From contig JBGSIV010000299.1 in the NCBI GenBank assembly GCA_041742355.1, positions 7,912 through 71,911 on the forward strand: a stretch of DNA of 64,000 nucleotides. Direction: 5' to 3'. The stretch comes from Candidatus Zixiibacteriota bacterium (GTDB lineage: Bacteria; Zixibacteria; MSB-5A5; GN15; FEB-12). Every line of letters starts with the position of its first letter. Position 1 is the first letter of the stretch. This document shows positions 10,056 through 44,852 of this stretch, piece after piece. The notes under the pieces were generated by a model. The model did not search any database. It had not been told where the DNA came from and saw nothing but the letters and a program-made list of their open reading frames with translations. Made by a program: the position numbers and the translations under genes.

Positions 10056-10058
10056 GAG

Positions 10059-12262: not shown

Positions 12263-12273
12263 GCGAGGCATAC

Positions 12274-14723: not shown

Positions 14724-15229
14724 TGAGTTCGACGCTGGTGCTGTGCCTTGGCAACGACGTCCTGTCGGATGATGCATTCGGCTTTCACCTGGCCCGGCGA
14801 CTGCAGGAACAGGAGGAACTGGAGGGCAAAGCGGATGTGCAGTTTGCCCCGTTGGCAGGCTTCAATCTGCTGCCGCTGCTCCAGAACCACGAACGGCTCC
14901 TGATTGTCGATACCATCGTCACCGGTCGGGCGCTGCCGGGGACCATCCACTTCTTTCCGATGGGCGAAGAGACTCCCTCGCGTCTGTTGACCTCCAGCCA
15001 CCAGATCAGCCTGCCCCACGCGCTTGCCCTCGGACGGGCGCTCGGCATGGCCATGCCGGAGAGCATCGATGTTCTGGCGGTGGAAGCGCAGGATGTGTGC
15101 ACGCTCAGTGAGGAGATGACTCCGCCGGTGGAGGAGGCACTCGAACCGGCCCTCAGCCGGGTCGCCGAATGGATCGCCACGTCACTATCGGAGGAATACC
15201 ATGGAGGATTCGAACCGCAGGTCAACTAA
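14723..15229 (+). CDS. Hydrogenase maturation endopeptidase (HycI/HoxW/FrhD family)
   Basis: LVLCLGNDVLSDDAFG (GNxxxxDDxxG), LLIVDTI and SSHQISL. The ATG shares 1 nt with the mvhA stop. Confidence 0.85.
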   Translation: MSSTLVLCLGNDVLSDDAFGFHLARRLQEQEELEGKADVQFAPLAGFNLLPLLQNHERLLIVDTIVTGRALPGTIHFFPMGEETPSRLLTSSHQISLPHALALGRALGMAMPESIDVLAVEAQDVCTLSEEMTPPVEEALEPALSRVAEWIATSLSEEYHGGFEPQVN

Positions 15230-19602: not shown

Positions 19603-19630
19603 CTAGGTCTGCACTTCTCATCAGCTATCA

Positions 19631-23901: not shown

Positions 23902-23938
23902 AAGAGGGCAGGTCAGCCGACCTGCCCTCTTCTTTTTG
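23902..23938 (+). terminator. Rho-independent terminator
   Basis: Perfect 13-bp stem AAGAGGGCAGGTC / GACCTGCCCTCTT with loop AGCC, followed by CTTTTT. Confidence 0.8.
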
Positions 23939-24052: not shown

Positions 24053-25660
24053 TTAGACCGACGGGAATGATATCTGGATCCGGGTGTACGAGCCCGGTTC
24101 GGTGTCGACGTTGATAGTGGCGTGATGACCGGCAATGATACGGGCGCAAGTGACCAGACCGAATCCATGGCCATCGCGCTTGGTGGTGAACCGCTGCAGG
24201 AAGAGCTTCTCGCGAACTTCGGGCGGCATGCCGCAGCCGTTGTCGGCCACCAGCAGTATCACGCGGTCCCGGTCGACAGTGGTGCGAACCGTGATCTCCC
24301 CTTCGCTGCGACCCGCTTCACGAATAGCGTCGGCTGAATTATTGATGAGGTTCATCAGCACCTGGGTGATGCGGTCGGTATCGACCTCAACCGCCGGAAG
24401 GTTGGGATCGAAATCACTGATCACCCTGATTGCCTTGAAACGGCTCTGAATCCGGAGAAAGGTGATTACGTTCGAGGCCAGGTCATTCAATGAAGCGAGC
24501 TGTGTCTGCAACTGCCCCTTCCGGTTGTCCATGAGTTCGGTTGTGAACCGATCAAGGTGACGGACATTTTCGAGGACTCGGCCCAGGTAGCTCTCCGCTT
24601 TTGCTCTATCACCGCGCTTGATTGCGATCTGGGTCAGTTCCACTCCCCCGTGCAGCACCGCCAGAATGTTGCGGATCTCATGCGCTATGGAAGACACCAT
24701 GGCGCCCCGTTCCGCTAGTTTCTCCAGTTCCAGAAGTTGAGACTCAGTCTCCCGCGCATGCGAGACATCGTCGAGCAGGAGGACCTTGTCGCAGTGAGAG
24801 GCGGCGCCACCGTAAATCCGCGCTAGTGACAGGCTGTACACCCGCCCCGATTGGCTGTCAAGCACGGTGCACGGCTCGGGCTGGCCGGCCGATTCCTCCG
24901 TGAGGAAGCGACGAACCGCCCGCGGCAGTTCTATGGTGGTCAGGATTTCGGTCAAGGGTGGCGTGGTGTCGCCGAGATCCACTTCGCCGCCGGTCATGTC
25001 CAGGACCAGCGTGCGTGCCGTCTGATTGAGCATGCGCGGTTTTCCCGTGGCGCTGCACACGAACATGGCCTGCGGTACGTCGTCGAGCAGCGACGCATAC
25101 CACTGTTTGGTAGCCGAGAGATCGGACAGCAGGTATGAGTTGGTCAGCAGAGGGGTGACGGACGCCACGACCGCTTTGAGCCGGGTCACGTCATCCTCAT
25201 CGAGCGTCTGGCCATCGTGCTTACGGCCCACTCCGATGAAACCGAAAAGAGTCTGCTTGTGCACGAGCGGAACGACGGCACTCAGGCCGTACCTCTGGAG
25301 GAGGCAGATACTTTCGGGTGCTCGATCCGACCAATCATCAGTGCAGTGGCCCAGGCAGGGCGAGGATTCATGCTCCAGGCACCTCCAGCATCGGACGGAG
25401 CCGGTATCGGGCAACTCCCGCTCCCGGTTCGCCAGGGGACCAACAGCGTATACGGTGGGATGGACGGACGGGATGCCCAATCTGCGAATAATCGCCATGA
25501 CGCCGGGAACTGCAACCTGCCCCGACAGTGTCAGGAGCAGGGAGTGCATCAGCTGCCCGAAATCGGAGTCAGCCGCAAACTGGGCCGCGAGCTGATGCAG
25601 CGCGCCAAGCGCCAGTGCGTCGCGTTCCATAGCCGCAGTGGGTTCAGTCGTCGGTAGCAC
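24053..25660 (-). CDS. Soluble sensor histidine kinase (GAF/PAS-like N-terminal region, HisKA, HATPase)
   Basis: H-box SSIAHEIRNILAVL, N-box LMNLINNSADA, G-boxes DNGCGMP and GHGFGL. No TM segment and no adjacent response regulator. ATG 25630 is an alternative start. Confidence 0.85.
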   Translation of the reverse strand: MLPTTEPTAAMERDALALGALHQLAAQFAADSDFGQLMHSLLLTLSGQVAVPGVMAIIRRLGIPSVHPTVYAVGPLANRERELPDTGSVRCWRCLEHESSPCLGHCTDDWSDRAPESICLLQRYGLSAVVPLVHKQTLFGFIGVGRKHDGQTLDEDDVTRLKAVVASVTPLLTNSYLLSDLSATKQWYASLLDDVPQAMFVCSATGKPRMLNQTARTLVLDMTGGEVDLGDTTPPLTEILTTIELPRAVRRFLTEESAGQPEPCTVLDSQSGRVYSLSLARIYGGAASHCDKVLLLDDVSHARETESQLLELEKLAERGAMVSSIAHEIRNILAVLHGGVELTQIAIKRGDRAKAESYLGRVLENVRHLDRFTTELMDNRKGQLQTQLASLNDLASNVITFLRIQSRFKAIRVISDFDPNLPAVEVDTDRITQVLMNLINNSADAIREAGRSEGEITVRTTVDRDRVILLVADNGCGMPPEVREKLFLQRFTTKRDGHGFGLVTCARIIAGHHATINVDTEPGSYTRIQISFPSV

Positions 25661-25685
25661 TATCGCATTCCTCGGCCGGCCGGTG

Positions 25686-26033
25686 TCATGACTGCGGAAC
25701 CGCTTCCGTCAGCGTCACCGCCTCTTCGAGCGATTGCCTGACCGTGAAGTAGGTATCCAGGTCCAGTACTTTCAGGACGTGCAGAACCGTCGGGGACACC
25801 TGACACAGGATCAGGTCGCCGCCCTGATCCCTGAAGGTGTTTACCGTTCCCAGCAGCGCGCCCACCCCGGCCGAAGAAATGAACTCGAGCCGGGCCATAT
25901 CGATGATGACGAAGCGAACTCCGCCCGCCCTTGCCGAGACGAGCGACTCCACCATGCTCGATGCATTGTAGTTGTCCAGCATTACTCCCGGTGAGATCAC
26001 CAGTACCTGGCTGGACAACAATCTCTTATCCAT
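25686..26033 (-). CDS. STAS-domain anti-sigma-factor antagonist (SpoIIAA/RsbV-like)
   Basis: 115 aa. FVIIDMARLEFISSAGVGALLG holds the phosphorylatable Ser context, and VLKVLDLDTYF is the conserved C-terminal motif. Confidence 0.85.
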   Translation of the reverse strand: MDKRLLSSQVLVISPGVMLDNYNASSMVESLVSARAGGVRFVIIDMARLEFISSAGVGALLGTVNTFRDQGGDLILCQVSPTVLHVLKVLDLDTYFTVRQSLEEAVTLTEAVPQS

Positions 26034-26049
26034 AGCCGATCCTTTCGAA

Positions 26050-26790
26050 TCACGTTGACCATTGCTTTACTGCGGTGCAGACGTTCAGTACTCCCAGATG
26101 GCGCTCATACGAAACGCTATCGGCCAGTTTTGCTATCATTGTCAGGCCGTACCCCCGGGTTCGTCGGCTTTCGGCGGCCTCGAGAGGCATCACCCCGGCC
26201 CGTCGGACCGTAGGGTCGAACGGCACGCCGCCGTCGATGAATTTCAGGCTGATCGAATGCCGGTTCTCTGATGTAGATACGACGGCCGTGACGACGATTA
26301 CGTCGTTTGAGTCGAGTTCGCCGTGGTACATGATGTTCGAGGCCATTTCATAGAAGATCGTGCGAATATCCATGGCGGCCAGTTCCGGCATCGGCAGCTG
26401 CCCGAGATACCGCTCGAACCGCTCCAATGCCTCACGAATGGACGTGTCCGCAACCGGGATGGTATCGGCGTAGCCCGCCGTGGTATCCGACACTTTGAAC
26501 GGGAAGAAGGCTTCCAGGTCGAGCAGCCGGAGCACCCGGATGAGCTCTGGACGCACGCCAACCAGCCGCAGAGTCGAACCCCGTTTCGCGCTCAGATCGC
26601 GGGCGATCCACATGAGGCGAATATGACCGGAGTAAACGACCCCTAAATCCGAGCAATCCAGCAGCAGTTCATGCGGCTTCGCCATGAGCGCTCGCATGAC
26701 TGCAGACTCGAAGTCTTGCCCGGACCGATCCTCTACCGAAACCGGCAGCGCAACCACCACCCGCTCCGATATGTCAGACGGATGCAGCAT
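26050..26790 (-). CDS. Fusion of an N-terminal STAS domain and a C-terminal RsbW/SpoIIAB-like serine kinase (HATPase_c_2)
   Basis: Residues 1 to about 110: LLLDCSDLGVVYSGHIRLM...LIRVLRLLDLEAFF (STAS). Residues 140-246: IFYEMASNIMYHGE, LKFIDGGVPFDP, RGYGLTMIAKL (kinase). Confidence 0.75.
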   Translation of the reverse strand: MLHPSDISERVVVALPVSVEDRSGQDFESAVMRALMAKPHELLLDCSDLGVVYSGHIRLMWIARDLSAKRGSTLRLVGVRPELIRVLRLLDLEAFFPFKVSDTTAGYADTIPVADTSIREALERFERYLGQLPMPELAAMDIRTIFYEMASNIMYHGELDSNDVIVVTAVVSTSENRHSISLKFIDGGVPFDPTVRRAGVMPLEAAESRRTRGYGLTMIAKLADSVSYERHLGVLNVCTAVKQWST

Positions 26791-28372
26791 ACCAGTCGAT
26801 CTCCTGTCCGGTTCGCGCTATCGGATTTCCGCGCCACTTCATGGCCACCAGCGTGATATCGTCAAACTGGGGCGCCGAGCCGACGAAAGTGCAGTGGTCC
26901 TCCAAGGTGCTGTTGATGAAGTCGGCCGGCTCCAATTGCCGCTTTGTCAGCAACGCCTGTGTCAGGCGGTCCATGCCGTACTCCGTTCCTTCCGGGTTGC
27001 GCGCCTCGTTGACACCATCGGTAAATTGCACGAGCCAGTCTCCGGCGGTCAACTCGATCCTTTGGCTTTCGATACGCTGATCGAACACCGCCGGCTCCAT
27101 GAGCCCGAGGGGATACCCCGGCGGTCGCACCAGGGAGGTCGTCCCTTGGGTCGATGAAATCCAGATGATGGGATTGTGGCCGGCGGACGCCACGGCCACG
27201 TGCCCGGTACGGAGATCCAGCAGGCCGTAGAGCATGGTGACGAACATGCCTTTGCGAATTGTTCCGAGAAGTTCCCGATTCAGATCGCACATAACCTGGC
27301 GAGGATCGCGGTCGGGCGTGGCCACACTGCGGATTATGTCGCGGGTCATCAGCATGAACAGCATGCCGGGGAGGGACTTGCCTGACACATCGGCGATCAG
27401 AAAACCCAGTCGATGATTGTCGAACGGCAGGAAGTCGTAGTAGTCCCCACCAACCTGATTGGCGCTGATGTAGGTGCCGCAGAACTCATAGCTCGGCCCG
27501 GTGGGGAACTTGCGCGGGAGAATGCCAATCTGAATTTCGCGGGCAATCTCCAGTTCGCGCACCATGCGGTCTGTCTGAAGACGCTCCTCCTGGGTCGTCC
27601 GCAGATGGATGCCCATGACCCTCAGTGTCTCGGCTAGATAGGCCAATTCGTTCTTCCCTCCGACAGGAATATCCAAGGACGGATTGGACGGATCGACATT
27701 GCGCAGGTGCGTGACAATCGTGCTGATCGGCCGCAGCTTTCGGCTGACCAGCCAGAGAACCATGGGGATCCCGATGAGAATCGTCACCAGCGTCACCGTG
27801 GTAACGGTTACGATCGAGTTCGTCCGGGCCTTTTGGATCTTCTCCGTCGGGAAAGCCAGGGCCAGATGGCCGATGGTCACCTGGCGCTCCCGGATCGGCA
27901 CGTAGATGTAAAGCGTGTCCTGCACGGTATACGCCCGAGAGTCGTACGGGCCGGTCTGAACGTCGGCTGGTGTGACCGGCAGTCTGAGCCGGCCGCCGCC
28001 GGTTAGAAGCCGAATGTCAGTATGCGCGAGAAACAGCCCCTGGTCATCGGCTACGCCCGACCAGTACAGCTCGGGGTTGGTGGCCGCAAGCTCACGACAC
28101 AAACTGCTTAGTCGGAGCACATCGGGGCCATCGGGGCTCAGGATATCCTTGGCTGCCGAGGCCGCATGGGACCGCGCCTGGATCAGCAACTGATTGACGA
28201 CATTCGACGTTACCTCCGTCACATACTGGCGGGTGAAGAGGTAACCGGCAACAGACATCAGGACCGTCACCAGTACCACCAGGTACAGGGGGAATTCCCA
28301 CCGCAGTGAGCGGCGGTACTGACGGGCATCCGGCCACTCTGGAGATCGTTCGACAGCGGGATTAGTCGCCAT
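26774..28372 (-). CDS. Membrane-bound PP2C (SpoIIE/RsbU-type) phosphatase with a periplasmic sensor domain and HAMP
   Basis: Two TM segments (FPLYLVVLVTVLMSVAGYLF and IVTVTTVTLVTILIGIPMVLWLV) flank a loop of about 150 aa. A HAMP domain follows, then GGDYYDF, FLIADVSGKSLPG and FTDGVNEA. The start is ATG 28372, overlapping the upstream stop by 11 nt, not 28513. Confidence 0.85.
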   Translation of the reverse strand: MATNPAVERSPEWPDARQYRRSLRWEFPLYLVVLVTVLMSVAGYLFTRQYVTEVTSNVVNQLLIQARSHAASAAKDILSPDGPDVLRLSSLCRELAATNPELYWSGVADDQGLFLAHTDIRLLTGGGRLRLPVTPADVQTGPYDSRAYTVQDTLYIYVPIRERQVTIGHLALAFPTEKIQKARTNSIVTVTTVTLVTILIGIPMVLWLVSRKLRPISTIVTHLRNVDPSNPSLDIPVGGKNELAYLAETLRVMGIHLRTTQEERLQTDRMVRELEIAREIQIGILPRKFPTGPSYEFCGTYISANQVGGDYYDFLPFDNHRLGFLIADVSGKSLPGMLFMLMTRDIIRSVATPDRDPRQVMCDLNRELLGTIRKGMFVTMLYGLLDLRTGHVAVASAGHNPIIWISSTQGTTSLVRPPGYPLGLMEPAVFDQRIESQRIELTAGDWLVQFTDGVNEARNPEGTEYGMDRLTQALLTKRQLEPADFINSTLEDHCTFVGSAPQFDDITLVAMKWRGNPIARTGQEIDWYAASV

Positions 28373-30368
28373 AACCGGCCTCCGCCAGGCGAGCCATCTC
28401 CCCGCGCGTTCTGGCAATGTAATTGCTGATCTCGGGGTTGCCGGGGACCATTCGAAGGGCCTTCTCCCACACCGCAATGGCCTCGGGGAGGCGATTCTTC
28501 CCGTAGTAGTCAATGCCGGACAGCTTGTAGGCCTGGAGCAGGTAGTCCCGGACCGAACGATAGTCCGGCGCCAGCCGATGGGCCAGTTCCCAGTGTGAGA
28601 TCGCTCCGCTCAGGTCACCCTGGGCGAAGGCCTGCTGCCCGGCCAGGTAGGATGCCTCGGCCTCTTTCCGTATGGTGGCGCTGAGTTTCGTTGGAGCAGT
28701 TGTTTCTTTCACCGGCGCGACCGCCGCAACGTCGCCGTTCACCTTCTTCATATTCTCCCGGAAGATCGCCGGCCAGCCATGATCCGGGAACGACAGACTG
28801 ACGGAGTCGGCGAACTGCGCAGCGAGAGCATAATTGCCGTCGCCCGCGGCCCTCTCAGCCTCGGCTCTCCAGGCTTCGAATCGCAGCCGGCTCCCGGCCC
28901 CGGAGATGCCCGGATACCGCGATGCGTAGGGCGCGATCGTGCGGTGCAGCGCCCCCGCCTCTTCGATCTTGCCCAGACTGACGAGGGAATCAAGCGTGAA
29001 GAGCGCATTCGAAACCATGCGTTCCTGTGCGGCGGCATCCTCCAGGGCCTGATCGGTGCGCGCTATCAGATCCAGTGCAGCAGGGGAAGAGGCGTCCAGC
29101 GCCAGGGCCATTCCGGCATAGTGTCGTGCACCCAGGAGATCTCCCTGCCGGAATTTCGCTGTGGCCGAATCGACGAGCTGCCCGAGCTGACGGTCGCGGT
29201 CTCTCCTCTCCCGCAGATTGTGTGCCTCCGTCGCCAGCGCGGCAACTGCGGCCGTATCACCACCGGACACTCGAGTCAGGAACAGGGCCCGGTCAAGACT
29301 AATCGATGCGTCTGTCAGGGCGCCGGACGCCAGTGCCGCCTGTCCGGCAGCAATCAGGTCGTGAATCATCGCCTCCTGCTGGCCCTTGACTCGAGAAGCC
29401 ATAATCCGGTTGAATTCCTGCTCGCGGCGCTGATCCCGGGCCATCCGGCGATCGTCGGCGGACGAGCCGATAAGCGTCGTGATCGAGAACATGTGGACGC
29501 TTCCCAGATCCCGGTCGACCAGCGCGTAATCGAACGTCAGGGGACCGGCACGGAAGCCCGCTCCGCACGACAGCTTCCCGGACTCCCATCCGCCGCGGAG
29601 CGTCAGCATATCCTGGAAGCCGTACTCTGCTCCCACCGAGGTCTGAACATCCGCCCCATCGCTCGCGCCCGCGCTCATGAGAATGCCGGCACTGTGGTCG
29701 CCGTGGTTGGGAGCAAGCTCTATTCGGGTACCGAAGTCGACGCGGAAAGGCAGCTTAACCGCGTCGTCCAGGAGCGTCAGCCGCGGACTCACCACGTTCC
29801 GCAGCACGACGGTCACATCCACCGATGGTGACCATGCAAACGGCGGCGTGATCGTTCGGCCGAACGCGACACTGATCCCGGGGGATGATGTCGCCGACCG
29901 GTCGGCCAGCGCATGGTGTTCGAAGTGGGTCGCCACACCGAGCCGATAGCTCCCCAGCATCCGGCCGTACGCAGCGTACAGCGCAAGCCGCTGCTCCGAA
30001 ATGTACCCGAGCATCAAATTGCGGTCGTCACGTTTCTCGATACCGTCGACTCCAAGGCGGAAGACGCCTAGGCCGAAGGTTCCCATATCAAGGGTCGGCC
30101 AAGCTGCCCCGGCGTACTGGTAGGCGACGTCAGAGTCGAACAGACGGCTGTAGAACCCGGCGGCGGTCAGGTACTGTGCGGAGGCAAGGTTCGACGGATT
30201 CCAATAGGGCGCCGTGGCCGCGTCGGACACGACGACACCGGCGCCGCCGAGAGACAACTCCCGTGCCCCTGCGCCGAGGCTGAACGGGGAATCACTGCCT
30301 CCGTCGTCGGCGCACACGGTCCCGGCCAGCAGGCCGAGCAGCCCGATGAGAAGCCCTGCCATCTTCAT
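28362..30368 (-). CDS. Secreted outer-membrane beta-barrel (PorV/PorQ- or FadL-like) fused to a C-terminal helical/TPR domain
   Basis: The start is ATG 30368 (ATGA overlap with the giant gene stop). Signal peptide MKMAGLLIGLLGLLAGTVCA. The barrel N-terminus is GARELSLGGAGVVVSDAATAPYWNPSNLA. The C-terminal TPRs include YLAGQQAFAQGDLSGAISHWELAHRLAPDY and AIAVWEKALRMVPGNPE. Confidence 0.55.
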   Translation of the reverse strand: MKMAGLLIGLLGLLAGTVCADDGGSDSPFSLGAGARELSLGGAGVVVSDAATAPYWNPSNLASAQYLTAAGFYSRLFDSDVAYQYAGAAWPTLDMGTFGLGVFRLGVDGIEKRDDRNLMLGYISEQRLALYAAYGRMLGSYRLGVATHFEHHALADRSATSSPGISVAFGRTITPPFAWSPSVDVTVVLRNVVSPRLTLLDDAVKLPFRVDFGTRIELAPNHGDHSAGILMSAGASDGADVQTSVGAEYGFQDMLTLRGGWESGKLSCGAGFRAGPLTFDYALVDRDLGSVHMFSITTLIGSSADDRRMARDQRREQEFNRIMASRVKGQQEAMIHDLIAAGQAALASGALTDASISLDRALFLTRVSGGDTAAVAALATEAHNLRERRDRDRQLGQLVDSATAKFRQGDLLGARHYAGMALALDASSPAALDLIARTDQALEDAAAQERMVSNALFTLDSLVSLGKIEEAGALHRTIAPYASRYPGISGAGSRLRFEAWRAEAERAAGDGNYALAAQFADSVSLSFPDHGWPAIFRENMKKVNGDVAAVAPVKETTAPTKLSATIRKEAEASYLAGQQAFAQGDLSGAISHWELAHRLAPDYRSVRDYLLQAYKLSGIDYYGKNRLPEAIAVWEKALRMVPGNPEISNYIARTRGEMARLAEAGYGD

Positions 30369-33300
30369 CGAATCACCGCCACTTTCCGCTGCAACGACTC
30401 TTCCCCTCCCGACAGGTATCGTATCGTCAGCCGGCACAGGTAGGTCCCGGGCAGCACCTCGCGCCCCTTCTGGTTTTCGCCGTACCATTTGTCGGCCTGA
30501 TGCTGCCCCGTCTCGCGATATTCATCCACCGCGAGGTCGGTGACCAGATCGCCCGTGATGGTATACAGAGAGATCGACACATGAGCCGGTTCGGCCAGCA
30601 TGTAGGTAATTGTTGTCCCGTTGCCGTCAGCAGCGTTGAACGGATTGGGGTAATTTGTAAACGACGCTGCAATGGTCGCCGCCGTGACCGACAATTCGGT
30701 CCCGCGAAGTGGATAGGTCCCCTCTGCAACGAGTGGAAGTACCGCAGTGTGCAGCAGCGGATCCTGAAGCGTCAACGAGAGCGAATCCATAAACGCAAAC
30801 GAGTAATTCGCCGGTGTGGCGGTCGACTTGATATCGCCGGTCAGCCTGAGTTGGTGACTTGCTCCGGCTGTGAGTACGACCGGCTCGGCCAGGGCGAAGG
30901 TCAGCGGCTGATCGGCCGCCACGGGGAATGTCGCTACCGGGGACTCATCGAGCCACACGCTCACACTGGACACCAGATCCGTCAAATCCGTTGGGATGAA
31001 CCCGGCCGCTGTGCGCGTGAACACCTGACCGCTCAGCCCCTGCAACTCGACATCCCCCTGCTGCCCCAGCAGGCTGTAGTCGACATTCAGTTCCATCAGC
31101 GGAACTCCGAATTGTCCCTGATGGACTATGATTACCGAATGGTCCTCGGCCGAAAGCGATGGACGCCCCGCCGGCTGAATGATCGCCGCCGGACCGATTG
31201 CCATGGGGAAACTGAGATCACAGGCCGGGTTGGCCACCACGCGGAGGTCGTGCGCTGGATCGGCGAGATCGCTCAATACGAGGCGGTCGGACGACTCCAC
31301 GACGAGCACAAGGCTGTCATGGGGTGCCAGCGCTTCGATGTCGGCCACCAGGCGGACCCTGATCGAATCCTCGGCGCTCAACTGCAGGCCCGTTTCGCCG
31401 AAGCGGAAGTACACGGCGCCGTTGACCAGTTCGACGTACGGCTGGTACCGGGCGGGCTCCCCCTCCACCGAGACGCCTATGCGATCTAAAAACTTCTGCG
31501 GGTCGAGCGGCACACCATCGGTATTGAGCAAATTGGTTTTCACCCCGTCGACCTGAGCCGGCGAGCAATCCTCGCAGGGCGGATAGACGATGCTGAACTC
31601 TACCAGCTGAACTTCCTCCGAGCCGGCCACAATTGATCCCGGCATCATCGCGGTAACGCAAACTGAGGGTGGCAGGGCGGGTTCGTTGATATCCACCCAC
31701 CCGCCTGCTAATGGAAAAGCCGACGCTGTGCTGAGCACGGTGGTATCGGTGACCGCCAGAATGGTTGCGCCCGAGCCTATTTCCCGAACCGACAGGTACG
31801 AGCTGTCGGCGATGACCAGCCGGAACCCGCTGTTTAGGGCCGATGAACCAACATCACCGATAAGTTGCAGTGTGCGCGCTTCGCCTGGCCCGAGTGTGAG
31901 CGGTGAGCCCAGGTCGATCTGCACGGGAGTGGTGCTCAGGCCAGCGCCTGACACCGTTCCGTATTCGGTCCCGGCCGACCGCACTGCCAGGAGGCGGAGC
32001 ACGGTGGAAGCATCGATAGGATTGCTGTCGCTGTCGACAAAAGCGGCGCGGAGCGATGTGATCTGTATGGGCGACGCACCGACCTCGCCGGGATGCCGAA
32101 CTGTAATGTCCATGCATACCACGCCGGTTTGCCCCTGGTTGGCCTGGCGGTCGGTCTGTACCGGACCGGCCACAGCGAGGCTGCCCGCGGGCAGATCCAC
32201 CCGGCAAATCGCGGTGCTCAGCGGGAAAGTTTCGGCTGATTGCACGGTTGCCGGTGATCCCGCGTTCGCGTCGTGCACGACGAAAGCCTCGGGTCCATCG
32301 ATCGACAGAACAAACGTGGAGGCTTCACAGGCAGAGTCAACATCCACCAGCAGTGCCAGCCGGGCGTCAGCGCCCGGAGTGATGATCACCGGCGACGGGA
32401 AGGTGAGAGTAACCTGGCTGTCAGCCGGGACCGGGAGCGCCATCGCGTAGTTGGAGAATCCGACTCCCAGCGCCATGAGCGAAAACACCTGATTTGCGGG
32501 TCGGCCTGTCCCGGATGCGTCTCTCACCGTTATGCGCACAGCATCCAATTGCAGCGGAGAGACCGATGCCCCGGTGTCCGGATGAGAAACGGTAATCGTG
32601 AGGGGAAAGACATTTCGCTGGCCCTGTGTTACCGAGGCCGGGGCGGAGTTCAGCAGACTGACGACTGCAGTCTCGGCCCGCTCCAGGATGATCGCCGTCG
32701 AGGACACGATGTATGCCGATGAATCGGAGACGGCCGGCGCCACCGCTCGCATTCGCCAGGAAACCTGTCCGGTCTGGAGGGAGGTGAAATAGCACCTGAG
32801 TTCTCCTGTAGCTCCCGGGCTCAACGTCAAGGTACCGCTGCAGCTGTCCAGTCGGACCGCGGCGATAGTTCCCTCCGGAATCACTTCGGCCGCGAGGCCG
32901 GGCACAGTCACGCCGTAGAGGTTCTGCACATTCAAGCGGACTGCAATCGTCTCTCCAACCGAGTACGTCGAACGAATTTGACCGCAGGACACCTGAAGCT
33001 GCGATGCGTATACGGTCAACGACGCACCTGAGGCCAGCACGGAGTCTCGGGGGCCGTCGTTGTTCGAGGCGTAGGTGCAGCCATTGAGGGGAATCCAGGT
33101 CTGAATAACGGTCCCCGAAGCGGCATCGGCGGCGATATCGGCGGTAATGATGAGGTAGGGGGGAGATTCCAATATCGGTAAGCCAAGGTAGGCACTCGTC
33201 CACAGGCCGGCGGCATAGAAGCATGGGCCGAGCAGGGAGTCTGTTCCCTGCCAGATCGCGTCGCCGTTACGATCAAGCCAGATCTTCACAGATAGCAGGT

Positions 33301-36300
33301 CTGTCGGTGCACAACTTACCCCGAGCGCGACAGTCTGTAGTGTATCGATCAGATCACCGTTATGAGCCGGACGGAGCGAGACGAGCACCTGCGACGTATC
33401 GCCGGCGCGGACTGTCCGCGAGGCCATCGCGAGAACTTCGTACTGCGACGCCACGGAACCATCGACCACTAATGTCCGGCCGGTCTGGACGGGAAGATCG
33501 CCGTTGAGGGCGACGGGCGTGGCAAAGGAGAAGTCGGCGGCATCGAAAGCCGCGACGATAAGCGTGTCGGAGTCGGCTGCATCGTCCGCAATTTCCGCCG
33601 TCACGAACAGGTACGAGAGCGATTCGGCCGGCAGCGCTGCCGTAAACCCATCCAGTTGAAGCGTGTCATCGGAGAAACTCCGCGCCGCCGCGAGCGAGTT
33701 CTCGTCGAGGCTGAAGGAACTGGATCGGCCATAGTACAAGCGCACGAGGCCGAGCAGGCGGTCCCGATAATCATCGTCTCCACCCGACACGCTCCGGTTG
33801 TGGAGACGCAGCCCGCTCAGTTCTTTCTGAACCGTATATCCGTTGTAGAGCGCAAAGGCCAGTATCCGGGTGTTGTTGGCGCCGGGCGCCACCGCGCCGC
33901 TGATGTCACCGAGAGTAACAATGGTAACGCGATCGGGCGGAAGAAGCAGCACGGGATCGTCTGCGCTGACGGCCGCGTCATCGGGGCCATTCAGGCCCGA
34001 CCGATAGGTTACTCCGCCTATTGGAACTGACAGAAAGAGTGTCCCGGCCCGGAAAGATTCCGGAGTGATGCTGGCAGTCACAATGAACTCGACGCCGCCT
34101 GCGAATACCCCTGTTCGCAGGTTGCCGGCCGACCAGTCGGTGCCATTCCATGTCAGTTCGGCACACACTATGTCGTCCGTAGTAAGTCCGTTGCCCGTCA
34201 CATCATGCCACAATCGGAGCGTGCTTACCGCGCTTCCGTCACTCAACGACCCCAGATTCATTAACCGGATCGACTGTAGTGTGTCGGCGGCATACCCATT
34301 GCCCGGGAGGCGGAAGCGGAACACGGGGCTGTTGGTCCGCCCTCCGGTAAGGTTCAGGTCGTCAACAGAGGAGACTCCCACCGCCGAAGCGGGGAAGCCG
34401 CTGATTGTAGCGAAGGAGGGATTCACCGCCGGAAATGTCCCCGTTACCTGAATCGGTTCATGGCAGTAGACATGATTTTGTTGGTCGATGCCGAACCGAA
34501 CCTGTGTGCCGGCCCGCGCGAGATTTCTGGACACGGCTGCCAGAACGGTCAATTGGATGTGGCTGTTGCTCCATGGCAGTAGCAGGCCAGGCGTTCCCAC
34601 GACCGCCGTCCCGGCCTCCACAGTTGCGACAGCGATCAACGTGTCGGCGGCGCCGATCACCATTGGATTGCCATCGAGGTCGTGATACACCATGAGGCTG
34701 TCGAACTGCCCATCGAGTTCATCCTGGGTTGCTCCGAGCGGATCCACGGCATAGGAAGTCAGCACGAGGCTGTCGATTTCGGCCGGAGCACCACTGTGGT
34801 TGACCAATTGCAGTGACAGAAGAGGCGGCGAGACAGCTCCCCAGACTATAGAGGACCCGGGGATCGGCTGCACGGATACCAACATCTCGCGCTCGCTGAG
34901 AATCGTGAGACCGCCTTCGGCGGCAACTTCGTGGTCGAGCGGGCCATCATTACCCGAGGAGACCCCGATGCCGTACTGGGGAATGCCCAGTTCAAGCGTT
35001 GCCCCCCGGGTAGCAAAGCGTGACGCTGTGGCGATTACGAACAGCCTGGTCATCCCGGTGTTCAACGGAACCCGGAGGGCACTGCGACTCCACCACGCCC
35101 CGTGGTTTACAAGAGCCGCGACCCGGTGGTCGCTGCTTCCTCCATCCCAGGTGCCGTCCCCCTCATCAAGGTAGACTGTCAGCGAATCAAGATCCGCTGC
35201 TCCGGCAGTACCGGTATTGGCTACCGCGAGCATGGTGAGGGTGTCGGGGAGGTAGCCATTGCAGGGGATATCAATGGTGAGAATTCGTACCGGGCCGTCG
35301 GCCCACTCAAGGGTGTCCTGATCGGCGCCGGTGAGAGCAAGCTGCGCGGCAACCATACCATCGATAATACACACACCGTGCGAGTTTACCGTATCCGGCC
35401 CGTCGGCCGGCGTGGCATCCAGCAGCTGCAGGTCGGCTGAGGGGAGCAGACTGAAGTCGAGTGAATCGCCGTCGTGCGGATGCGTGGCTATGTCGGCCAC
35501 TACCAGCAAAATGGCCCGTTCGCCCGGCGCCAGCGCAAGGGAGCAGGCGCTGATGTGTCGATTGTCGGTTCCCGCAAACGGTGTCGCCAGCAGCGTATCC
35601 CACAGTGACAATTCGAGGTCGAGGTCGCGGTCAAGGTAGATTGCCACCGAATCGAGATTGCTTCCCACCTGTTCCGCTGTCCCGTTCCCGCGTGACACGT
35701 TCCTGACCGCCAGCGAACTAATGGTCTTGGGTTCCTGGAAGTAGTTGCCAACCTCGATCGCGAGGAGCGTCTGATCCTGCTCGCCGGGATACACCGAGGT
35801 TGTCCCCAGGGCAATCTGATCAATCAGCACTGACTGGATCACAATCAGGCCGGTGGTATCGACGGCGCCGCTGCCGTCAGTGGCGACCGCAATTCGGCCC
35901 ATGCCGGGAACATCAGCGGACAGCTCGCCCCGCTCATCAAGGGTGCCGATCATTCCCAGAAGCGACCAGGCAATCTCGCCGGCGTCAGCGAGGTTCGAAT
36001 CCGCATCGTAGGCCGTCACGGAGAAACCAATCGTATCATGCAAGACACCGGTAAAACTCTCCGGCGAAATTCGAATTCGGGCAGGCAGTCCGGGTACCAA
36101 CGTCAGGATCCCGGAAGTGTCGGCAGTGATCAGATCGAAGCTCGCAGCGATTCTCCCTGTACCAGGTCTCCTGAAATCCAGGGTAACCGACGCGCTGACG
36201 GCGCCCGGCGATTGCGCTATGGAGTCCTCGCCGATAATCGTCCAGAGAACGGCAACGTCTCCTAGAGACACGCTGTCGCTGCTATACCCCCGGCAGTACA

Positions 36301-37624
36301 CTTCTATCTCCTCATCGGTGGAGAGAGCGGTGTCGCCGACAGCTGTCCCGTCGGCCAACTCCACGCGAATGAAACTCAGGAGCGCGGCATCCAGCACCGT
36401 GATCTGCACGGTTTCCGAGTCAGCCAGAATTCCGTCGGATGCAACAAATGTGACTTCGATTGAACCTACCTGCGAGGAGTTAGGAACAAACCAGAAAGTG
36501 CCTTGACCGTCGCCGTGGTCAGTGAACGACGCCCCCGGTGGCAGGGGAGCGGCCGACAGCACGGGGACGGCGCCGTCGGCATCGGATGCACTGAGCGTGA
36601 ACTCCAGTGTATCTCCCGCCGCGATCGATTGGGGCCCGATGTCCTCGAGCACGGGGGAGACGTTGGCCGTATAGACCGTGATCGTTACTACTTCGGTGTC
36701 GGCAAGCTCACCATCGCTGGCAGTGAAGAAGATTTCGTAAATCCCTGCGGCGTTCTGTGAAGCCGAGAAAACGAAATCTCCTGTGCCGTCGCCGTTATCC
36801 TTGAAGGAGGCGTCCTTGGGCAGCGGAGCAGCTTTCAGCACGGGGATGGTTCCGTCGCCGTCCGACGCTGAAACCGTGAACGTGACTTCTTCACCTTCGG
36901 CGATAGTTGCGGAACTGAGCGGCGCAAGGTTGGGTGGCTCGTTCAGGTGCCTCAAGCTGGCGCCCAACTCCACCCACTCCTTGTTCTCGGTAAAGGCCCA
37001 ACCTATGCCGACCGACACCGCGCCACTCTTGACGCACCCTTGTCCCCAGTGCTCGTCCCTGACTTCCAGCGACCAGATCCGGGTCGAGCCAATACTTGGG
37101 TCGGGTTCGCCGTTGGAGAGCGACAGAGACGAGGCAAGCACCATGTTGCCCGGGTTGCTGGGTACAACGATACTTCCTGTGTTACTCTTGCCTGATTTGG
37201 TAATGATTGTGTCTACCGGGTGACTCAAGTCAACTCCGGTGAGGGCGACAGCCGACATCGCTGCCTTGACATTGCCGTCGGAAAGCAGCACCAGTTCAGC
37301 CTCACCAACCGGGGGATTCACATACTGCCACAGCTCAATGCGCGGTTTGCCGATCGCATGGATGACTTTGCCGACCAGCGTGAGCGGGAGGCCTCCGTAC
37401 GTGACCGTCTCGGCCGAGTCGTCCTTGTCGGTGTACTGGACGGTCACCAGGAGAAGCATGTCCGGGTCACGGGTCGTATGCATGAGAACCAGCGAATCCG
37501 TGTCGTCACTGATCGAAATGGCAGTGTCGACGACTACCGGAACTGCGCTGACGATGCATGGCATAATCACCGCCCAAAGCAGCGCGATCGCCAGGGTGAA
37601 TGCGGAATTGAGCCTCAATGACAC
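30365..37624 (-). CDS. Giant (2419 aa) secreted surface protein with Ig/cadherin-like repeats, many degenerate beta-rich modules and a T9SS-type C-terminal sorting domain
   Basis: Uninterrupted 7.26-kb ORF. Signal peptide ...VIMPCIVSA. The listed start is GTG 37624, but TTG 37618 has better spacing from GGAG. See the sub-features below. Confidence 0.85.
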   Translation of the reverse strand: MSLRLNSAFTLAIALLWAVIMPCIVSAVPVVVDTAISISDDTDSLVLMHTTRDPDMLLLVTVQYTDKDDSAETVTYGGLPLTLVGKVIHAIGKPRIELWQYVNPPVGEAELVLLSDGNVKAAMSAVALTGVDLSHPVDTIITKSGKSNTGSIVVPSNPGNMVLASSLSLSNGEPDPSIGSTRIWSLEVRDEHWGQGCVKSGAVSVGIGWAFTENKEWVELGASLRHLNEPPNLAPLSSATIAEGEEVTFTVSASDGDGTIPVLKAAPLPKDASFKDNGDGTGDFVFSASQNAAGIYEIFFTASDGELADTEVVTITVYTANVSPVLEDIGPQSIAAGDTLEFTLSASDADGAVPVLSAAPLPPGASFTDHGDGQGTFWFVPNSSQVGSIEVTFVASDGILADSETVQITVLDAALLSFIRVELADGTAVGDTALSTDEEIEVYCRGYSSDSVSLGDVAVLWTIIGEDSIAQSPGAVSASVTLDFRRPGTGRIAASFDLITADTSGILTLVPGLPARIRISPESFTGVLHDTIGFSVTAYDADSNLADAGEIAWSLLGMIGTLDERGELSADVPGMGRIAVATDGSGAVDTTGLIVIQSVLIDQIALGTTSVYPGEQDQTLLAIEVGNYFQEPKTISSLAVRNVSRGNGTAEQVGSNLDSVAIYLDRDLDLELSLWDTLLATPFAGTDNRHISACSLALAPGERAILLVVADIATHPHDGDSLDFSLLPSADLQLLDATPADGPDTVNSHGVCIIDGMVAAQLALTGADQDTLEWADGPVRILTIDIPCNGYLPDTLTMLAVANTGTAGAADLDSLTVYLDEGDGTWDGGSSDHRVAALVNHGAWWSRSALRVPLNTGMTRLFVIATASRFATRGATLELGIPQYGIGVSSGNDGPLDHEVAAEGGLTILSEREMLVSVQPIPGSSIVWGAVSPPLLSLQLVNHSGAPAEIDSLVLTSYAVDPLGATQDELDGQFDSLMVYHDLDGNPMVIGAADTLIAVATVEAGTAVVGTPGLLLPWSNSHIQLTVLAAVSRNLARAGTQVRFGIDQQNHVYCHEPIQVTGTFPAVNPSFATISGFPASAVGVSSVDDLNLTGGRTNSPVFRFRLPGNGYAADTLQSIRLMNLGSLSDGSAVSTLRLWHDVTGNGLTTDDIVCAELTWNGTDWSAGNLRTGVFAGGVEFIVTASITPESFRAGTLFLSVPIGGVTYRSGLNGPDDAAVSADDPVLLLPPDRVTIVTLGDISGAVAPGANNTRILAFALYNGYTVQKELSGLRLHNRSVSGGDDDYRDRLLGLVRLYYGRSSSFSLDENSLAAARSFSDDTLQLDGFTAALPAESLSYLFVTAEIADDAADSDTLIVAAFDAADFSFATPVALNGDLPVQTGRTLVVDGSVASQYEVLAMASRTVRAGDTSQVLVSLRPAHNGDLIDTLQTVALGVSCAPTDLLSVKIWLDRNGDAIWQGTDSLLGPCFYAAGLWTSAYLGLPILESPPYLIITADIAADAASGTVIQTWIPLNGCTYASNNDGPRDSVLASGASLTVYASQLQVSCGQIRSTYSVGETIAVRLNVQNLYGVTVPGLAAEVIPEGTIAAVRLDSCSGTLTLSPGATGELRCYFTSLQTGQVSWRMRAVAPAVSDSSAYIVSSTAIILERAETAVVSLLNSAPASVTQGQRNVFPLTITVSHPDTGASVSPLQLDAVRITVRDASGTGRPANQVFSLMALGVGFSNYAMALPVPADSQVTLTFPSPVIITPGADARLALLVDVDSACEASTFVLSIDGPEAFVVHDANAGSPATVQSAETFPLSTAICRVDLPAGSLAVAGPVQTDRQANQGQTGVVCMDITVRHPGEVGASPIQITSLRAAFVDSDSNPIDASTVLRLLAVRSAGTEYGTVSGAGLSTTPVQIDLGSPLTLGPGEARTLQLIGDVGSSALNSGFRLVIADSSYLSVREIGSGATILAVTDTTVLSTASAFPLAGGWVDINEPALPPSVCVTAMMPGSIVAGSEEVQLVEFSIVYPPCEDCSPAQVDGVKTNLLNTDGVPLDPQKFLDRIGVSVEGEPARYQPYVELVNGAVYFRFGETGLQLSAEDSIRVRLVADIEALAPHDSLVLVVESSDRLVLSDLADPAHDLRVVANPACDLSFPMAIGPAAIIQPAGRPSLSAEDHSVIIVHQGQFGVPLMELNVDYSLLGQQGDVELQGLSGQVFTRTAAGFIPTDLTDLVSSVSVWLDESPVATFPVAADQPLTFALAEPVVLTAGASHQLRLTGDIKSTATPANYSFAFMDSLSLTLQDPLLHTAVLPLVAEGTYPLRGTELSVTAATIAASFTNYPNPFNAADGNGTTITYMLAEPAHVSISLYTITGDLVTDLAVDEYRETGQHQADKWYGENQKGREVLPGTYLCRLTIRYLSGGEESLQRKVAVIR
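30368..30676 (-). other. C-terminal sorting domain (Por_Secre_tail / FlgD-Ig-like) of the giant protein
   Basis: The last 103 aa: FTNYPNPFNAADGNGTTITYMLAEPAHVSISLYTITGDLV...WYGENQKGREVLPGTYLCRL. This is the pattern of T9SS type A C-terminal domains. Confidence 0.65.
36389..36937 (-). repeat. Two tandem Ig/cadherin-like repeats of about 92 aa (protein-level repeat)
   Basis: Residues 230-321 and 322-412 align. For example, EEVTFTVSASDGDGTIPVLKAAPLPKDASFKDNGDGTGDFVF matches DTLEFTLSASDADGAVPVLSAAPLPPGASFTDHGDGQGTFWF, and FTASDGELADTEVVTITV matches FVASDGILADSETVQITV. Confidence 0.8.
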
Positions 37625-38291
37625 TCCAATGCTGTCGGACAGATGTTTAGCATCCCTTTACTTAAGCAGGTCGGTAAATCAGGGTGTACACTTTACCCGG
37701 TCGAGGATTCCCCTGTCCTCTTTTGACGGCGAATGCTGCCCGTGTTGAGCTCGGAGCAGGGCACACATTATATGGGTATACTGGGTATCGCTTCTGGGTC
37801 GGGAAGTGGATATTTCGGATGCACCCGGTGTTGCGCCTCTGAGGGTACACAGCGACAAGGTCTTGAATGTCAGCGCCTTGCTATGGACGGTCAACCTGAG
37901 ATGGGGCTGCTATGAGATTGATCTGAGTCTTTTCGGTACTCCATGGGCACCTTGGGCGCGCAAGGAAAAAGATAGGCACAAGCCAATTGAGATGAGGTGC
38001 CACATGGCCGGATCTGTCGGATTCCTGCACTTATGGTGTTGGATGGCTTGATGTTAACTGGCGCGAAGAGGACTCCGGCCCCAGATAGCGCTAAACTCCT
38101 CCTCGAACTCTGATCCCCATGGCGGTTTGGGCTGCTTCCTTCTACCGAAGGCATATTTGCGACCAGCCAGCGTCAATCCACTTCCACAAGTGCGCCAATC
38201 TGTCCGGCGCTTGGCGGCTTCTCTCAAGGACGCTTGTAGAATGGACCATAGGGATAGATATTATCGCAATTCTTGAAGGACCTGAATTTTC

Positions 38292-39119
38292 ATGGCTATC
38301 GACAGACTCGGCTACGAATACCTCCTCGGCGACAGCGACCGGGAAATCGACCGGCTCCGCTTCCAGCACTCGGTCTGGGGGCCGGTGACCCATCGCTTCT
38401 TTGACCGCCTCGGCGTGCAGCCCGGATGGCGGTGTCTCGATGTCGGCGCAGGGCCGGGGTTTGTCTCGATGGATCTGCGCGACCGGGTCGGCAACTTTGG
38501 CGAGGTGACCGCCCTCGAGCCCTCGGAGACGTTCCGAGCGTGGTTAACCGATGAAGTCAGGCGTCGCGGCTGGATCAACCTGCACATCGTCACCGGCACG
38601 TCCTACGAGGTCGACCTGCCACATGAGTACTATGACTTGATCTTTGTCCGCTGGGTGATCGGTTTCGTCCCCCATCCCGAGCCGTTTCTCAAACCACTGC
38701 TGGCCGCCCTCAAGCCCGGCGGTATCGTTGCGTTGCAGGATTATGTCCATGAGGGATGCTCCCTTTTCCCCGAGGGTGGGGCTTGGGACAGTTTTCCTGA
38801 GATGATGCGCCGGTGGTGGCGCTCCGGAGGGGGCGATCCATTTGTGGCGGCGCGTTTGCCCGGCGTCATGCGCCACCTCGGCCTGACGGTGATCGATTAC
38901 ACCCCGACCTCGCTGACCGGCGGACCGGGCAGCCGCGTGATGGAGTGGATGGAGCGCTTCCTCGTCAGCCAGCTCCCGGTCATGGTGCAGCGCGGTATCG
39001 CCACGCAGGAGGATGCCGATGCGATTCTTGCCGACTGGCAGGAGCACCAGGCGAACGCCGAAACCGTGTTTTTCTCACCCTTCGTGGTGGACATCGCAGG
39101 GCAGAAGCCGCGCGCCTGA
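38292..39119 (+). CDS. Class I SAM-dependent methyltransferase
   Basis: Motif I RCLDVGAGPGFVSMDL, followed by VTALEPS and DLIFVRWVIGF. Confidence 0.8.
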   Translation: MAIDRLGYEYLLGDSDREIDRLRFQHSVWGPVTHRFFDRLGVQPGWRCLDVGAGPGFVSMDLRDRVGNFGEVTALEPSETFRAWLTDEVRRRGWINLHIVTGTSYEVDLPHEYYDLIFVRWVIGFVPHPEPFLKPLLAALKPGGIVALQDYVHEGCSLFPEGGAWDSFPEMMRRWWRSGGGDPFVAARLPGVMRHLGLTVIDYTPTSLTGGPGSRVMEWMERFLVSQLPVMVQRGIATQEDADAILADWQEHQANAETVFFSPFVVDIAGQKPRA

Positions 39120-39349
39120 GGCCGGCAAACGGCCCGGGAACACGCCTTCCCGAGACGGGTCTTCTCCCAGCGAATCATGAGAGCGGGGGGCCTGCCATCG
39201 TCCGCTTTCGTGTTCGCCACCCCAAAAGAATCATTGACTATATTGGGCCATATAGTATCTTATTGCCGTGCGAACGCGAGCTGCCCGGCCACCCGGCAAT
39301 CGCCCTGAGTTGGACCTGTTATCTCAAACAACCTTACGCGGAGTGCAGT

Positions 39350-44421: not shown

Positions 44422-44852
44422 GTTTATTCTCCTAAAATGTGGTTGGGCCGTTCGAATCGGCCACCGGGGGCGCACTGCGCGTCTGTGTAAGATCGACAAA
44501 TTTGATCCAATTAGCAAGGAAAACCCTCCGGTTGAGGGTTTGGTCCCGGCAACCACAATGTAACATCATGCTGGTTTCGCTGATCTGCTGCCAGGCTGGC
44601 CCTGCTGTTCATTTTTGGCGCAGAATTGGCCAGATCCTGACAAATCATAGACACCGTCATCGACAACAGGCCCGGCCCCCTGCAGGTACTCCCCGCCGTA
44701 ATCCGATAGTATCCCTACCGATTCTGTAATCAGGTCGTGATGAAAAAGGGGACCCAGACCAGGCCGCCGCGGCAGTCCTTCCGCGACAGGCCGGGTGATA
44801 ATGACAGGCTGATTCATAACCACTACCTATAACCAGGACCAGGGGATACGTT

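Follow-up and report, generated by a model that had tools for sequence, protein, structure and literature searches.

A conserved Zixibacteria-like gene cassette joins a giant surface protein and a PorV-like barrel to a partner switch without a sigma factor: a candidate trans-envelope signalling pathway

In the T9SS (type IX secretion system) of Porphyromonas gingivalis, PorU is held on the cell surface by PorV and PorZ by PorQ (PMC5562754, PMC10947112). Cargo proteins whose C-terminal domain (CTD) is of type B may have their cognate PorP/SprF-like shuttle or anchor encoded adjacent to them, as is the case for SprB and SprF of Flavobacterium johnsoniae (PMC9143113, PMC12618676). The SiaABCD system of Pseudomonas aeruginosa is a sigma-less partner switch, in which a HAMP-PP2C phosphatase of the membrane, an RsbW-type kinase and a small antagonist-fold protein control an adjacent output enzyme through the phosphorylation state of the small protein (PMC7647112, PMC7278518). 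This study concerns a cassette of six open reading frames (ORFs), genes A to F, which occupies positions 24053-37624 on the minus strand of a 64,000-nucleotide stretch of DNA from a Candidatus Zixiibacteriota bacterium (contig JBGSIV010000299.1, positions 7,912 to 71,911; the whole stretch is referred to as the window). In gene order, the cassette encodes a giant secreted protein (A), an outer-membrane barrel with a TPR domain (B), a receptor phosphatase of the inner membrane (C), a fusion of STAS and RsbW-type kinase domains (D), a single-domain STAS protein (E) and a soluble histidine kinase (F). With moderate confidence, we read it as a conserved trans-envelope signalling cassette that would act as an outside-in relay without a sigma factor.

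The cassette resembles the PorU-PorV and PorZ-PorQ pairs in that a surface protein would sit on a PorV/PorQ-family barrel and in that the CTD of A is nearest to those of PorU and PorZ. Unlike PorV and PorQ, B carries an additional helical/TPR domain of ~365 amino acids, and unlike PorU and PorZ, the protein that would be held is a 2400-aa Ig-repeat protein rather than an enzyme of the secretion machinery. The A and B genes also overlap and adjoin the receptor phosphatase gene, and the hosts are Zixibacteria-like rather than members of the Bacteroidota. As with SprB-SprF, a giant surface protein with repeats is encoded beside an outer-membrane partner of its own, which would fix its final location. 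The barrel, however, is of the PorV/PorQ rather than the PorP/SprF family, the CTD is type-A/FlgD_ig-like rather than type B, and the known linkages of this kind are not accompanied by signalling genes. With SiaABCD the cassette shares a sigma-less partner switch neighbouring an output enzyme, and GGDEF outputs also occur in its clade-2 relatives. The Sia system, however, has no outer-membrane or secreted part. The kinase of the cassette, moreover, forms a fusion with a second STAS domain, and a histidine kinase is the output enzyme in the window. C scored 19.5 bits against the SiaA model NF038263, far under its cutoff of 700 (E = 2.9e-4), and is therefore not a SiaA ortholog. The window also lacks a GGDEF gene; the cassette resembles Sia in outline only.

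More distant parallels can be drawn. Chlamydia RsbU/V/W and Bordetella BtrU/V/W combine a PP2C phosphatase, a kinase and STAS proteins without a dedicated sigma factor, and Chlamydia RsbU has a periplasmic sensor; neither a giant surface protein nor a PorV-like barrel is known to accompany these modules, and they have other outputs. In FecA-FecR-FecI and RcsF-OMP-IgaA (OMP, outer-membrane protein), an event at the surface is relayed to a transducer in the inner membrane by an outer-membrane protein that extends into the periplasm. The cassette as we read it follows a similar logic with entirely different protein families, and its output would be a Ser/Thr phospho-switch instead of an extracytoplasmic function sigma factor or a phosphorelay. 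The literature that was searched described no link between T9SS or PorV on the one side and STAS, PP2C or partner switching on the other, and it did not touch on T9SS or other secretion systems in Zixibacteria. The cassette is probably an undescribed, deeply conserved combination of known modules.

The first-pass annotation had described six minus-strand genes with overlaps of 4, 11 and 17 nt and gaps of 16 and 25 nt, and the re-determined junctions are identical (A/B -4, B/C -11, C/D -17, D/E +16 and E/F +25 nt), with start codons that give sensible N-termini. Each of genes B to F is preceded by a Shine-Dalgarno-like purine run. The domain assignments made at that stage for all six genes also hold when compared with profile matches and a hydropathy scan. 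Independent expression of parts of the cassette had been named as a sign that would speak against a single unit, and a scan for intrinsic terminators and sigma-70 promoters found nothing terminator-like or promoter-like within the junctions, which are too short to hold terminators. This geometry suggests that A to F are co-transcribed.

Conservation of the neighbourhood, the lack of which in relatives had been named as speaking against a unit, carries the argument that the six genes belong together. Fifty-seven related loci were collected from genomes and metagenomes, which gave 49 B lineages once near-identical copies had been removed; 42 non-redundant lineages have enough downstream sequence for the gene after B to be assessed. 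The label "Zixibacteria-like" used for these relatives rests only on the names attached to homologs of A and B, and the closest metagenome-assembled genome (MAG) carries the label Ignavibacteriales. The order A-B-C is kept in every assessable lineage (42/42), with a C-homologous Cache-HAMP receptor gene directly after B in all 42, where three "no" entries proved to be threshold artefacts and were counted as present. Upstream, an A-type CTD ends immediately before B in every locus for which that sequence is available. D is kept in 37 of 40 lineages, as a separate gene in 27 and fused to C in 10, E in 31 of 34, and F in 22 of the 26 lineages of clade 1, to which the window belongs. The junctions are conserved as well: A/B is -4 nt in nearly all loci, B/C ranges from -11 to -17 nt, with values of -11 to -14 being typical, C/D mostly from -11 to -23 nt, and D/E and E/F vary from a few to 59 nt. 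The genes that flank the cassette in the window, for an OPT transporter and a methyltransferase, are found in none of the other loci, whose own neighbours are mutually unrelated. The cassette is present in most of the Zixibacteria-like lineages sampled, and the conserved neighbourhood strongly supports the earlier proposal of a functional unit that couples the giant protein to a sigma-less switch and a histidine kinase. Across the loci, three parts form an invariant core: the giant protein with its CTD, the PorV-like barrel that bears the TPR arm, and the Cache-HAMP receptor. Between core and output, the partner switch is often present but can be rearranged, and the last slot holds an interchangeable output enzyme.

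Gene A (30365..37624, minus strand) encodes a protein of 2419 aa. A signal-peptide-like N-terminus, MSLRLNSAFTLAIALLWAVIMPCIVSA (aa 1-27, 37544..37624), would presumably be cleaved; the hydropathy scan shows a hydrophobic stretch at aa 5-39 that ends in VSA, in keeping with a Sec signal peptide. Two Big_9/Cadherin_5 (cadherin-like) domains were recognised by Pfam, and residues 600-2320 (~1700 aa) gave no meaningful Pfam match when A was searched as eight slices at E ≤ 1. This unmatched stretch contains internal repeats of ~160 and ~315 aa. An AlphaFold2 (AF2) model of residues 1780-2419, with a predicted local distance difference test (pLDDT) score of 85, is a chain of Ig-like β-sandwich domains, for which the top structural match was the Ig-like domains of the PrgB adhesin; PorU ranked fourth, followed by streptococcal envelope proteases and protocadherins. 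Orthologs of A align over residues ~430-2419 with 35-39% identity, and a protein that is homologous over about 2000 residues is a conserved component rather than fast-evolving cargo. The earlier description of A as giant "adhesin-like cargo" is refined accordingly: A is not a variable adhesin. Some orthologs exceed 3300 aa and carry an N-terminal pectate-lyase-like β-helix (Beta_helix, NosD, Pel9A-like; L054 1-10004, L015, L028 and L033). The window A is without these domains, so the "head" of A varies while the repeat body and the CTD are kept.

The CTD of A (aa 2321-2419, 30368..30664) is a predicted T9SS type-A/FlgD_ig-like domain with the pattern SFTNYPNPFN...GTYLCRL...RKVAVIR, and it is strongly conserved in 42 A orthologs as SFTNYPNPFNP...GTYFCRI...RKIAVIR. 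At E ≤ 0.01, FlgD_ig matches 35 of these 42 domains, Por_Secre_tail 15 and CHU_C 10. The best match of the CTD profile in the PDB was the CTD of PorU (6za2 residues 1061-1154, E = 4.4e-5), with the PorZ CTD at E = 0.07, and in profile comparisons the C-termini of PorU and PorZ also match the CTD of the window protein.

Gene B (28362..30368, minus strand) encodes 668 aa, counted from an ATG that overlaps the stop codon of A (ATGA), and consists of a signal peptide, a PorV-like β-barrel (aa 25-300, 29469..30296) and an all-helical/TPR domain of ~365 residues (aa 304-666, 28371..29459), the final ~100 residues of which are canonical TPR. Residues 31-298 match the PorV/PorQ family model NF033709 (83.1 bits, E = 2.6e-23) over model positions 9-324 of 326. 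The scores against the equivalog models lie far under their cutoffs (PorV, 31.9 against 250 bits; PorQ, 25.4 against 220 bits), and B is therefore not an ortholog of PorV or PorQ. The AF2 model of B (pLDDT 83) has ~14 strands over residues 67-300 and is entirely helical from 304 to 666. Its top two Foldseek matches were 8gl6_F (E = 5e-13) and 6h3i_F (E = 2e-10), with target-normalised TM-scores (TMt) of 0.65-0.66; both are chains of T9SS translocon entries, and we take chain F to be the PorV subunit of the SprA translocon. FadL was a weaker structural match (TMt 0.4-0.5), and the modelled domain is a FadL-type 14-strand barrel that comes closest to PorV. By profile and model, then, the protein initially annotated as "beta-barrel::TPR" is assigned to the PorV/PorQ family of barrels. 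Because the strand number of the barrel is even, its helical/TPR domain is placed in the periplasm in this model. PorV-type binding of the A CTD by the B barrel is suggested by the adjacency of the two genes and their 4-nt overlap in nearly all loci.

The two halves of B are conserved to a similar degree, with mean identity to orthologs of 49% for the C-terminal TPR part and 47% for the barrel. About 100 clusters of B homologs are of near-constant length, and those with names came from Zixibacteria MAGs. An exhaustive profile search gave 516 clusters at 50% identity with E ≤ 1e-30, those listed being nearly all of 620-700 aa and full-length.

Gene C (26774..28372, minus strand) encodes a 532-aa protein predicted to consist of a transmembrane segment (25-49), a periplasmic sensor domain of ~135 aa (aa 50-185, 27818..28225), a second transmembrane segment (186-213), HAMP and a PP2C/SpoIIE catalytic domain (aa 319-514, 26831..27418; PF07228, 157 bits), the topology being taken from the hydropathy scan. 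The PP2C motifs GGDYYD, DVSGK, TDG and DDIT are nearly invariant, with conservation of at least 84-100% across 37 orthologs. The periplasmic domain, of which conservation is moderate (39% identity), had no direct Pfam match in the window protein. It is probably sCache_3_2-like, because sCache_3_2 is called in the receptor halves of relatives that are homologous to C: the C profile covers positions 10-268 of the L057 protein (98 bits), and a BLASTP alignment of the two is collinear.

Gene D (26050..26790, minus strand; 246 aa) joins a STAS domain to an RsbW-type serine kinase domain (HATPase_c_2; PF13581, 50.9 bits), in which the N, G1 and G2 boxes (E148/N152/H156, D186xG188 and G213xG215) are invariant in close homologs. 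Homology between E and the STAS domain of D emerged from profile-profile alignment (hhalign probability 98%), although a BLASTP comparison of E with D detected none; a sequence search of the PDB with D gave no match. Only five close homologs of D were returned by a word-indexed search of 5.8 billion proteins, and ~30 orthologs occur inside cassettes. Gene E (25686..26033, minus strand) encodes a single STAS domain of the anti-sigma-antagonist type, 115 aa in length, that scores 60.2 bits against TIGR00377, above the cutoff of 53.45. Within its Ser53-Ser54-x-Gly56 motif, S53, S54 and G56 are invariant in 34/34 orthologs. The cassette thus contains the parts expected of a partner switch, namely a PP2C phosphatase with intact metal-binding motifs, an RsbW-type kinase with its characteristic boxes and a STAS protein with a phosphorylatable Ser/Thr. 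The window had been reported to encode no sigma factor or response regulator, and homology searches of its ORFs of at least 80 aa bear this out: no sigma-like ORF was detected, and jackhmmer seeded with CheY detected no receiver domain. Among the cassette loci, a single weak match to a sigma factor was seen, in two copies of one lineage (L019 and L020, E = 0.0012).

Gene F (24053..25660, minus strand) encodes a 535-aa histidine kinase with a weak GAF domain followed by PAS, HisKA and HATPase_c, and without a clear transmembrane segment in the hydropathy scan. HATPase_c scores 78.7 bits and HisKA 26.4 bits, just under its cutoff of 26.9; the H-box SIAHEIRN is present. Several orthologs of F (in L008, L010, L013, L018 and L023) are hybrid kinases of 715-841 aa with a duplicated PAS region and a C-terminal receiver. 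The designation of F as an "orphan" kinase accordingly fits the lineage of the window, in which no receiver was found, and fails for the orthologs in which one is fused. Across loci, the sixth position is taken by a GAF/PAS kinase, a hybrid kinase-receiver protein, or a GGDEF or HD-GYP protein. Because it swaps among signalling enzymes, this position behaves as an output slot, and, by analogy, its enzyme would be the target of the partner switch.

Variation between clades shows how the receptor and the switch can be rearranged. The receptor output in the clade of the window is PP2C alone. In a second, distant clade (L043, L045, L049, L050 and L055), the gene after B fuses an RsbW-type kinase, sCache_3_2, HAMP, PP2C and a helix-turn-helix domain in a membrane protein of ~980-1140 aa. 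In L049 (11881-20725) this receptor fusion is followed by genes for a ParA-like ATPase, a STAS protein of 241 aa, a GGDEF cyclase and polysaccharide export proteins that resemble Wza and Wzz; the GGDEF and Wza-like/Wzz-like genes point to outputs through cyclic di-GMP (c-di-GMP) and exopolysaccharide. In L058 and L059, the gene after B encodes a Cache-HAMP-PP2C-kinase protein and a STAS gene comes next, with the following slot taken by a GAF histidine kinase or by a protein that combines DUF3369 and HD-GYP. In L057 (9409-10875), B is followed by a gene for sCache_3_2-HAMP-HD-GYP, and STAS and kinase genes are lacking. Since the receptor half of the L057 protein is homologous to C (98 bits), its output domain has been swapped.

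In L060 (6569-10348), B and C were called as a single 1259-aa ORF (TPR, sCache_3_2, HAMP, SpoIIE). A true fusion was rejected because joining an outer-membrane barrel to an inner-membrane receptor is topologically implausible, and the ORF is probably a frameshift across the usual 11-14-nt overlap or an assembly artefact; STAS and histidine kinase genes follow it, and a gene for the giant protein is not upstream on the same strand. L003, from the Alphaproteobacteria, was rejected as a cassette relative and is a generic STAS/PP2C module.

An outside-in relay built from these parts would run as follows. To judge from homology, A would be exported by Sec, and a T9SS-type pathway that reads its CTD would carry it across the outer membrane. 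It would then stay on the surface, neither released nor lipid-linked, docked through its CTD on its own barrel B, and from the topology of the barrel the helical/TPR domain would hang in the periplasm. The invariant, translationally coupled adjacency of the B and C genes suggests that the TPR arm contacts the Cache-like domain of C, so that the state of A-B (present or absent, ligand-bound, or under load) would pass via HAMP to PP2C. As in other members of their families, C would be expected to dephosphorylate E at the invariant serine and the kinase domain of D to re-phosphorylate it. The final step is speculative: the partner held by D or E would set the activity of the sixth-slot enzyme, so that here the soluble F would signal to an unlinked response regulator. 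In other lineages the slot belongs to a hybrid kinase, to a diguanylate cyclase or to a phosphodiesterase of the HD-GYP type. The grounds for this step are the analogy with SiaABCD and the enzyme swaps in the sixth slot.

The predicted contacts were examined for covariation of evolutionary rates by a mirror-tree analysis of 25 lineages, using partial Mantel correlations. The periplasmic parts of B covary with the periplasmic domain of C (r = 0.50 and 0.42, p = 2e-4), and the PP2C domain of C covaries with E (r = 0.45, p = 2e-4); no covariation was found between the periplasmic domain of C and its own PP2C domain (r = 0.08).

A number of observations weigh against the relay. A control, the cytoplasmic N-domain of F, also covaries with the periplasmic domain of C (r = 0.53), and therefore the method catches non-specific covariation among the more divergent regions and its results are suggestive only. 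The same analysis gave no covariation signal linking F to D or E, and F is missing from 4 of the 26 clade-1 lineages. The canonical phospho-site position in the STAS domain of D is variable and is a Tyr in the window. B falls narrowly below the curated cutoff of NF033709 (83.1 against 90 bits), and the CTD of the window A lies below those of TIGR04183 (20.6 against 23 bits) and FlgD_ig (19.8 against 27). The window and the flanks, ~0.8 Mb in all, showed none of the T9SS core genes (SprA/Sov, PorK/L/M/N, PorU, canonical PorV). The A-B, B-C and C-E contacts are all predictions from sequences and models, and co-transcription is predicted from gene geometry. Lastly, the complete Zixibacteria genome CP070756.1 (3.27 Mb) has at its locus L004 (12009-13400) no more than A-B and a shortened C, whose match to the C profile ends at position 418 of 532; D, E and F are missing there. 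Either this cassette may have degenerated, or D, E and F may be encoded at another place in that genome.

Part of this evidence would also fit a co-regulated neighbourhood without a physical relay, which we regard as unlikely. Under such an arrangement, the Cache domain of C would respond, without any need of A and B, to a soluble ligand from the periplasm or the environment, the switch and F would regulate the expression or use of A from an autoregulated operon, and the TPR domain of B would serve only in assembly or anchoring. Domains of the sCache_3_2 type, as called in the homologous receptors, typically bind small molecules; the only moderate conservation of the periplasmic domain of C and the non-specific nature of the B-C covariation are in keeping with such a sensor. 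A generic ligand sensor would not, however, be expected to keep an overlapping junction with the gene of a PorV-like barrel in 42 of 42 lineages, nor to stay with A-B while its output swaps between PP2C and HD-GYP, and the C-terminal TPR part of B is as conserved as the barrel.

The route by which A reaches the surface could also be independent of T9SS, with signalling unchanged: A and B would then form a self-contained pair for export and anchoring, for which a FlgD_ig-like CTD and a FadL/PorV-like barrel had been recruited in organisms without the T9SS translocon. The sub-cutoff scores of window proteins against all curated T9SS models, the lack of T9SS core genes in the region covered and the silence of the searched literature on T9SS in Zixibacteria all favour this possibility, which we nevertheless consider quite improbable. 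In structure, B comes nearest to two chains of the T9SS translocon (8gl6_F and 6h3i_F) and not to FadL, the best matches of the CTD are PorU and PorZ, and a plugged 14-strand barrel is an unlikely conduit for a folded protein of 250 kDa. Moreover, Zixibacteria genes beside one cassette encode enzymes with Por_Secre_tail domains, which imply a general CTD-dependent pathway; in L004, the next gene after C encodes a Cu-oxidase with such a domain.

Still less probable, in our estimation, is control in the opposite direction, in which the switch and the kinase would read cytoplasmic cues through the GAF/PAS region of F and act via C and B on the secretion, anchoring or release of A. F does have cytoplasmic GAF-like and PAS sensor domains, and sigma-less partner switches that control secretion are known, as in the case of Bordetella BtrUVW and type III secretion. 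C, however, is built as an outside-in receptor, with a periplasmic domain, HAMP and a cytoplasmic enzyme. The L057 receptor bears HD-GYP directly, without a switch or kinase, which fits output from periplasm to cytoplasm and not the control of secretion, and the output enzymes of other clades are GGDEF and HD-GYP proteins. Chance adjacency of unrelated genes, with no functional unit at all, hardly deserves consideration, since the same order and overlapping junctions recur in ~40 independent lineages with unrelated flanks, which is more than chance would produce.

The outside-in relay, if it operates, would bear on two areas. To our knowledge, the inputs of sigma-less partner switches are mostly unknown, although the modules are widespread, and we know of PorV-family proteins in T9SS only as shuttles and anchors. 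The cassette proposes a physical input for a partner switch, namely a surface protein on its anchor, and a signalling role for a PorV-family protein. More tentatively, the cassette may define a new class of trans-envelope sensor, in which a permanently docked Ig-repeat antenna responding to contact, load or polymer binding relays mechanically through the TPR arm to the Cache-HAMP receptor, and from there to a Ser/Thr partner switch that gates interchangeable outputs. On this view a member of the T9SS shuttle family would for the first time serve as a conduit for signals, and the pathway would provide a form of surface sensing common to Zixibacteria and neighbouring uncultured phyla. Its presence in most of the sampled Zixibacteria-like lineages, together with at least several hundred 50%-identity clusters of the barrel-TPR family, suggests that the cassette is probably a core trait of an abundant, uncultured phylum of sediment and soil, in which it may govern attachment, aggregation or behaviour linked to c-di-GMP. 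The swaps between clades, such as the fusion of phosphatase and kinase and the replacement of PP2C by HD-GYP, are natural experiments that make the wiring testable.

The 5' intergenic region of the cassette (37625..38291), 667 nt in length and divergent from a plus-strand methyltransferase gene, presumably contains the promoter. It gave no Rfam match at E ≤ 1, riboswitches such as that for c-di-GMP having been sought, and no sigma-70-type consensus, in a scan that was uninformative for the promoter and in which counts fell below the expectation from shuffled sequence. At the 3' side, a palindromic hairpin with 13 GC-rich base pairs (23902-23931) lies between the convergent genes for F (minus strand) and the OPT transporter (plus strand). 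Its T-run is good on the plus strand and weak (TTT) on the minus strand; the hairpin is likely to be the 3' boundary of the cassette, where the transcript would terminate.

Among the products of the remaining ORFs in the window are hydrogenase/Hdr-like proteins, a TamB/Omp85 pair, a Ser/Thr kinase, a methyl-accepting chemotaxis protein, glutamate dehydrogenase, RND efflux proteins and a TetR regulator. Divergent from the cassette, and just downstream of the class-I methyltransferase gene (38292-39119, plus strand), a 953-aa ORF (38813-41674, plus strand) contains a Peptidase_S74 domain at residues 846-896. This domain is the intramolecular chaperone of proteins of the endosialidase and phage tail-spike type; other phage genes were not seen nearby. 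A protein of 935 aa (41749-44556, minus strand) is a Hanks-type Ser/Thr kinase fused to PD40/WD40 (TolB-like) β-propeller repeats. Some 2.5 kb past the cassette's 3' end, genes for a TamB-like protein (1299 aa) and an Omp85/POTRA protein (616 aa) form a TAM-type outer-membrane assembly module (15703-21481, minus strand). Further away, a long co-directional redox cluster (5080-15229, plus strand) encodes Hdr-like Fe-S/CCG proteins, a NuoE/NuoF-like flavoprotein and a poly-ferredoxin, together with a NiFe hydrogenase, represented by its small and its large subunit, and the HycI maturation protease.

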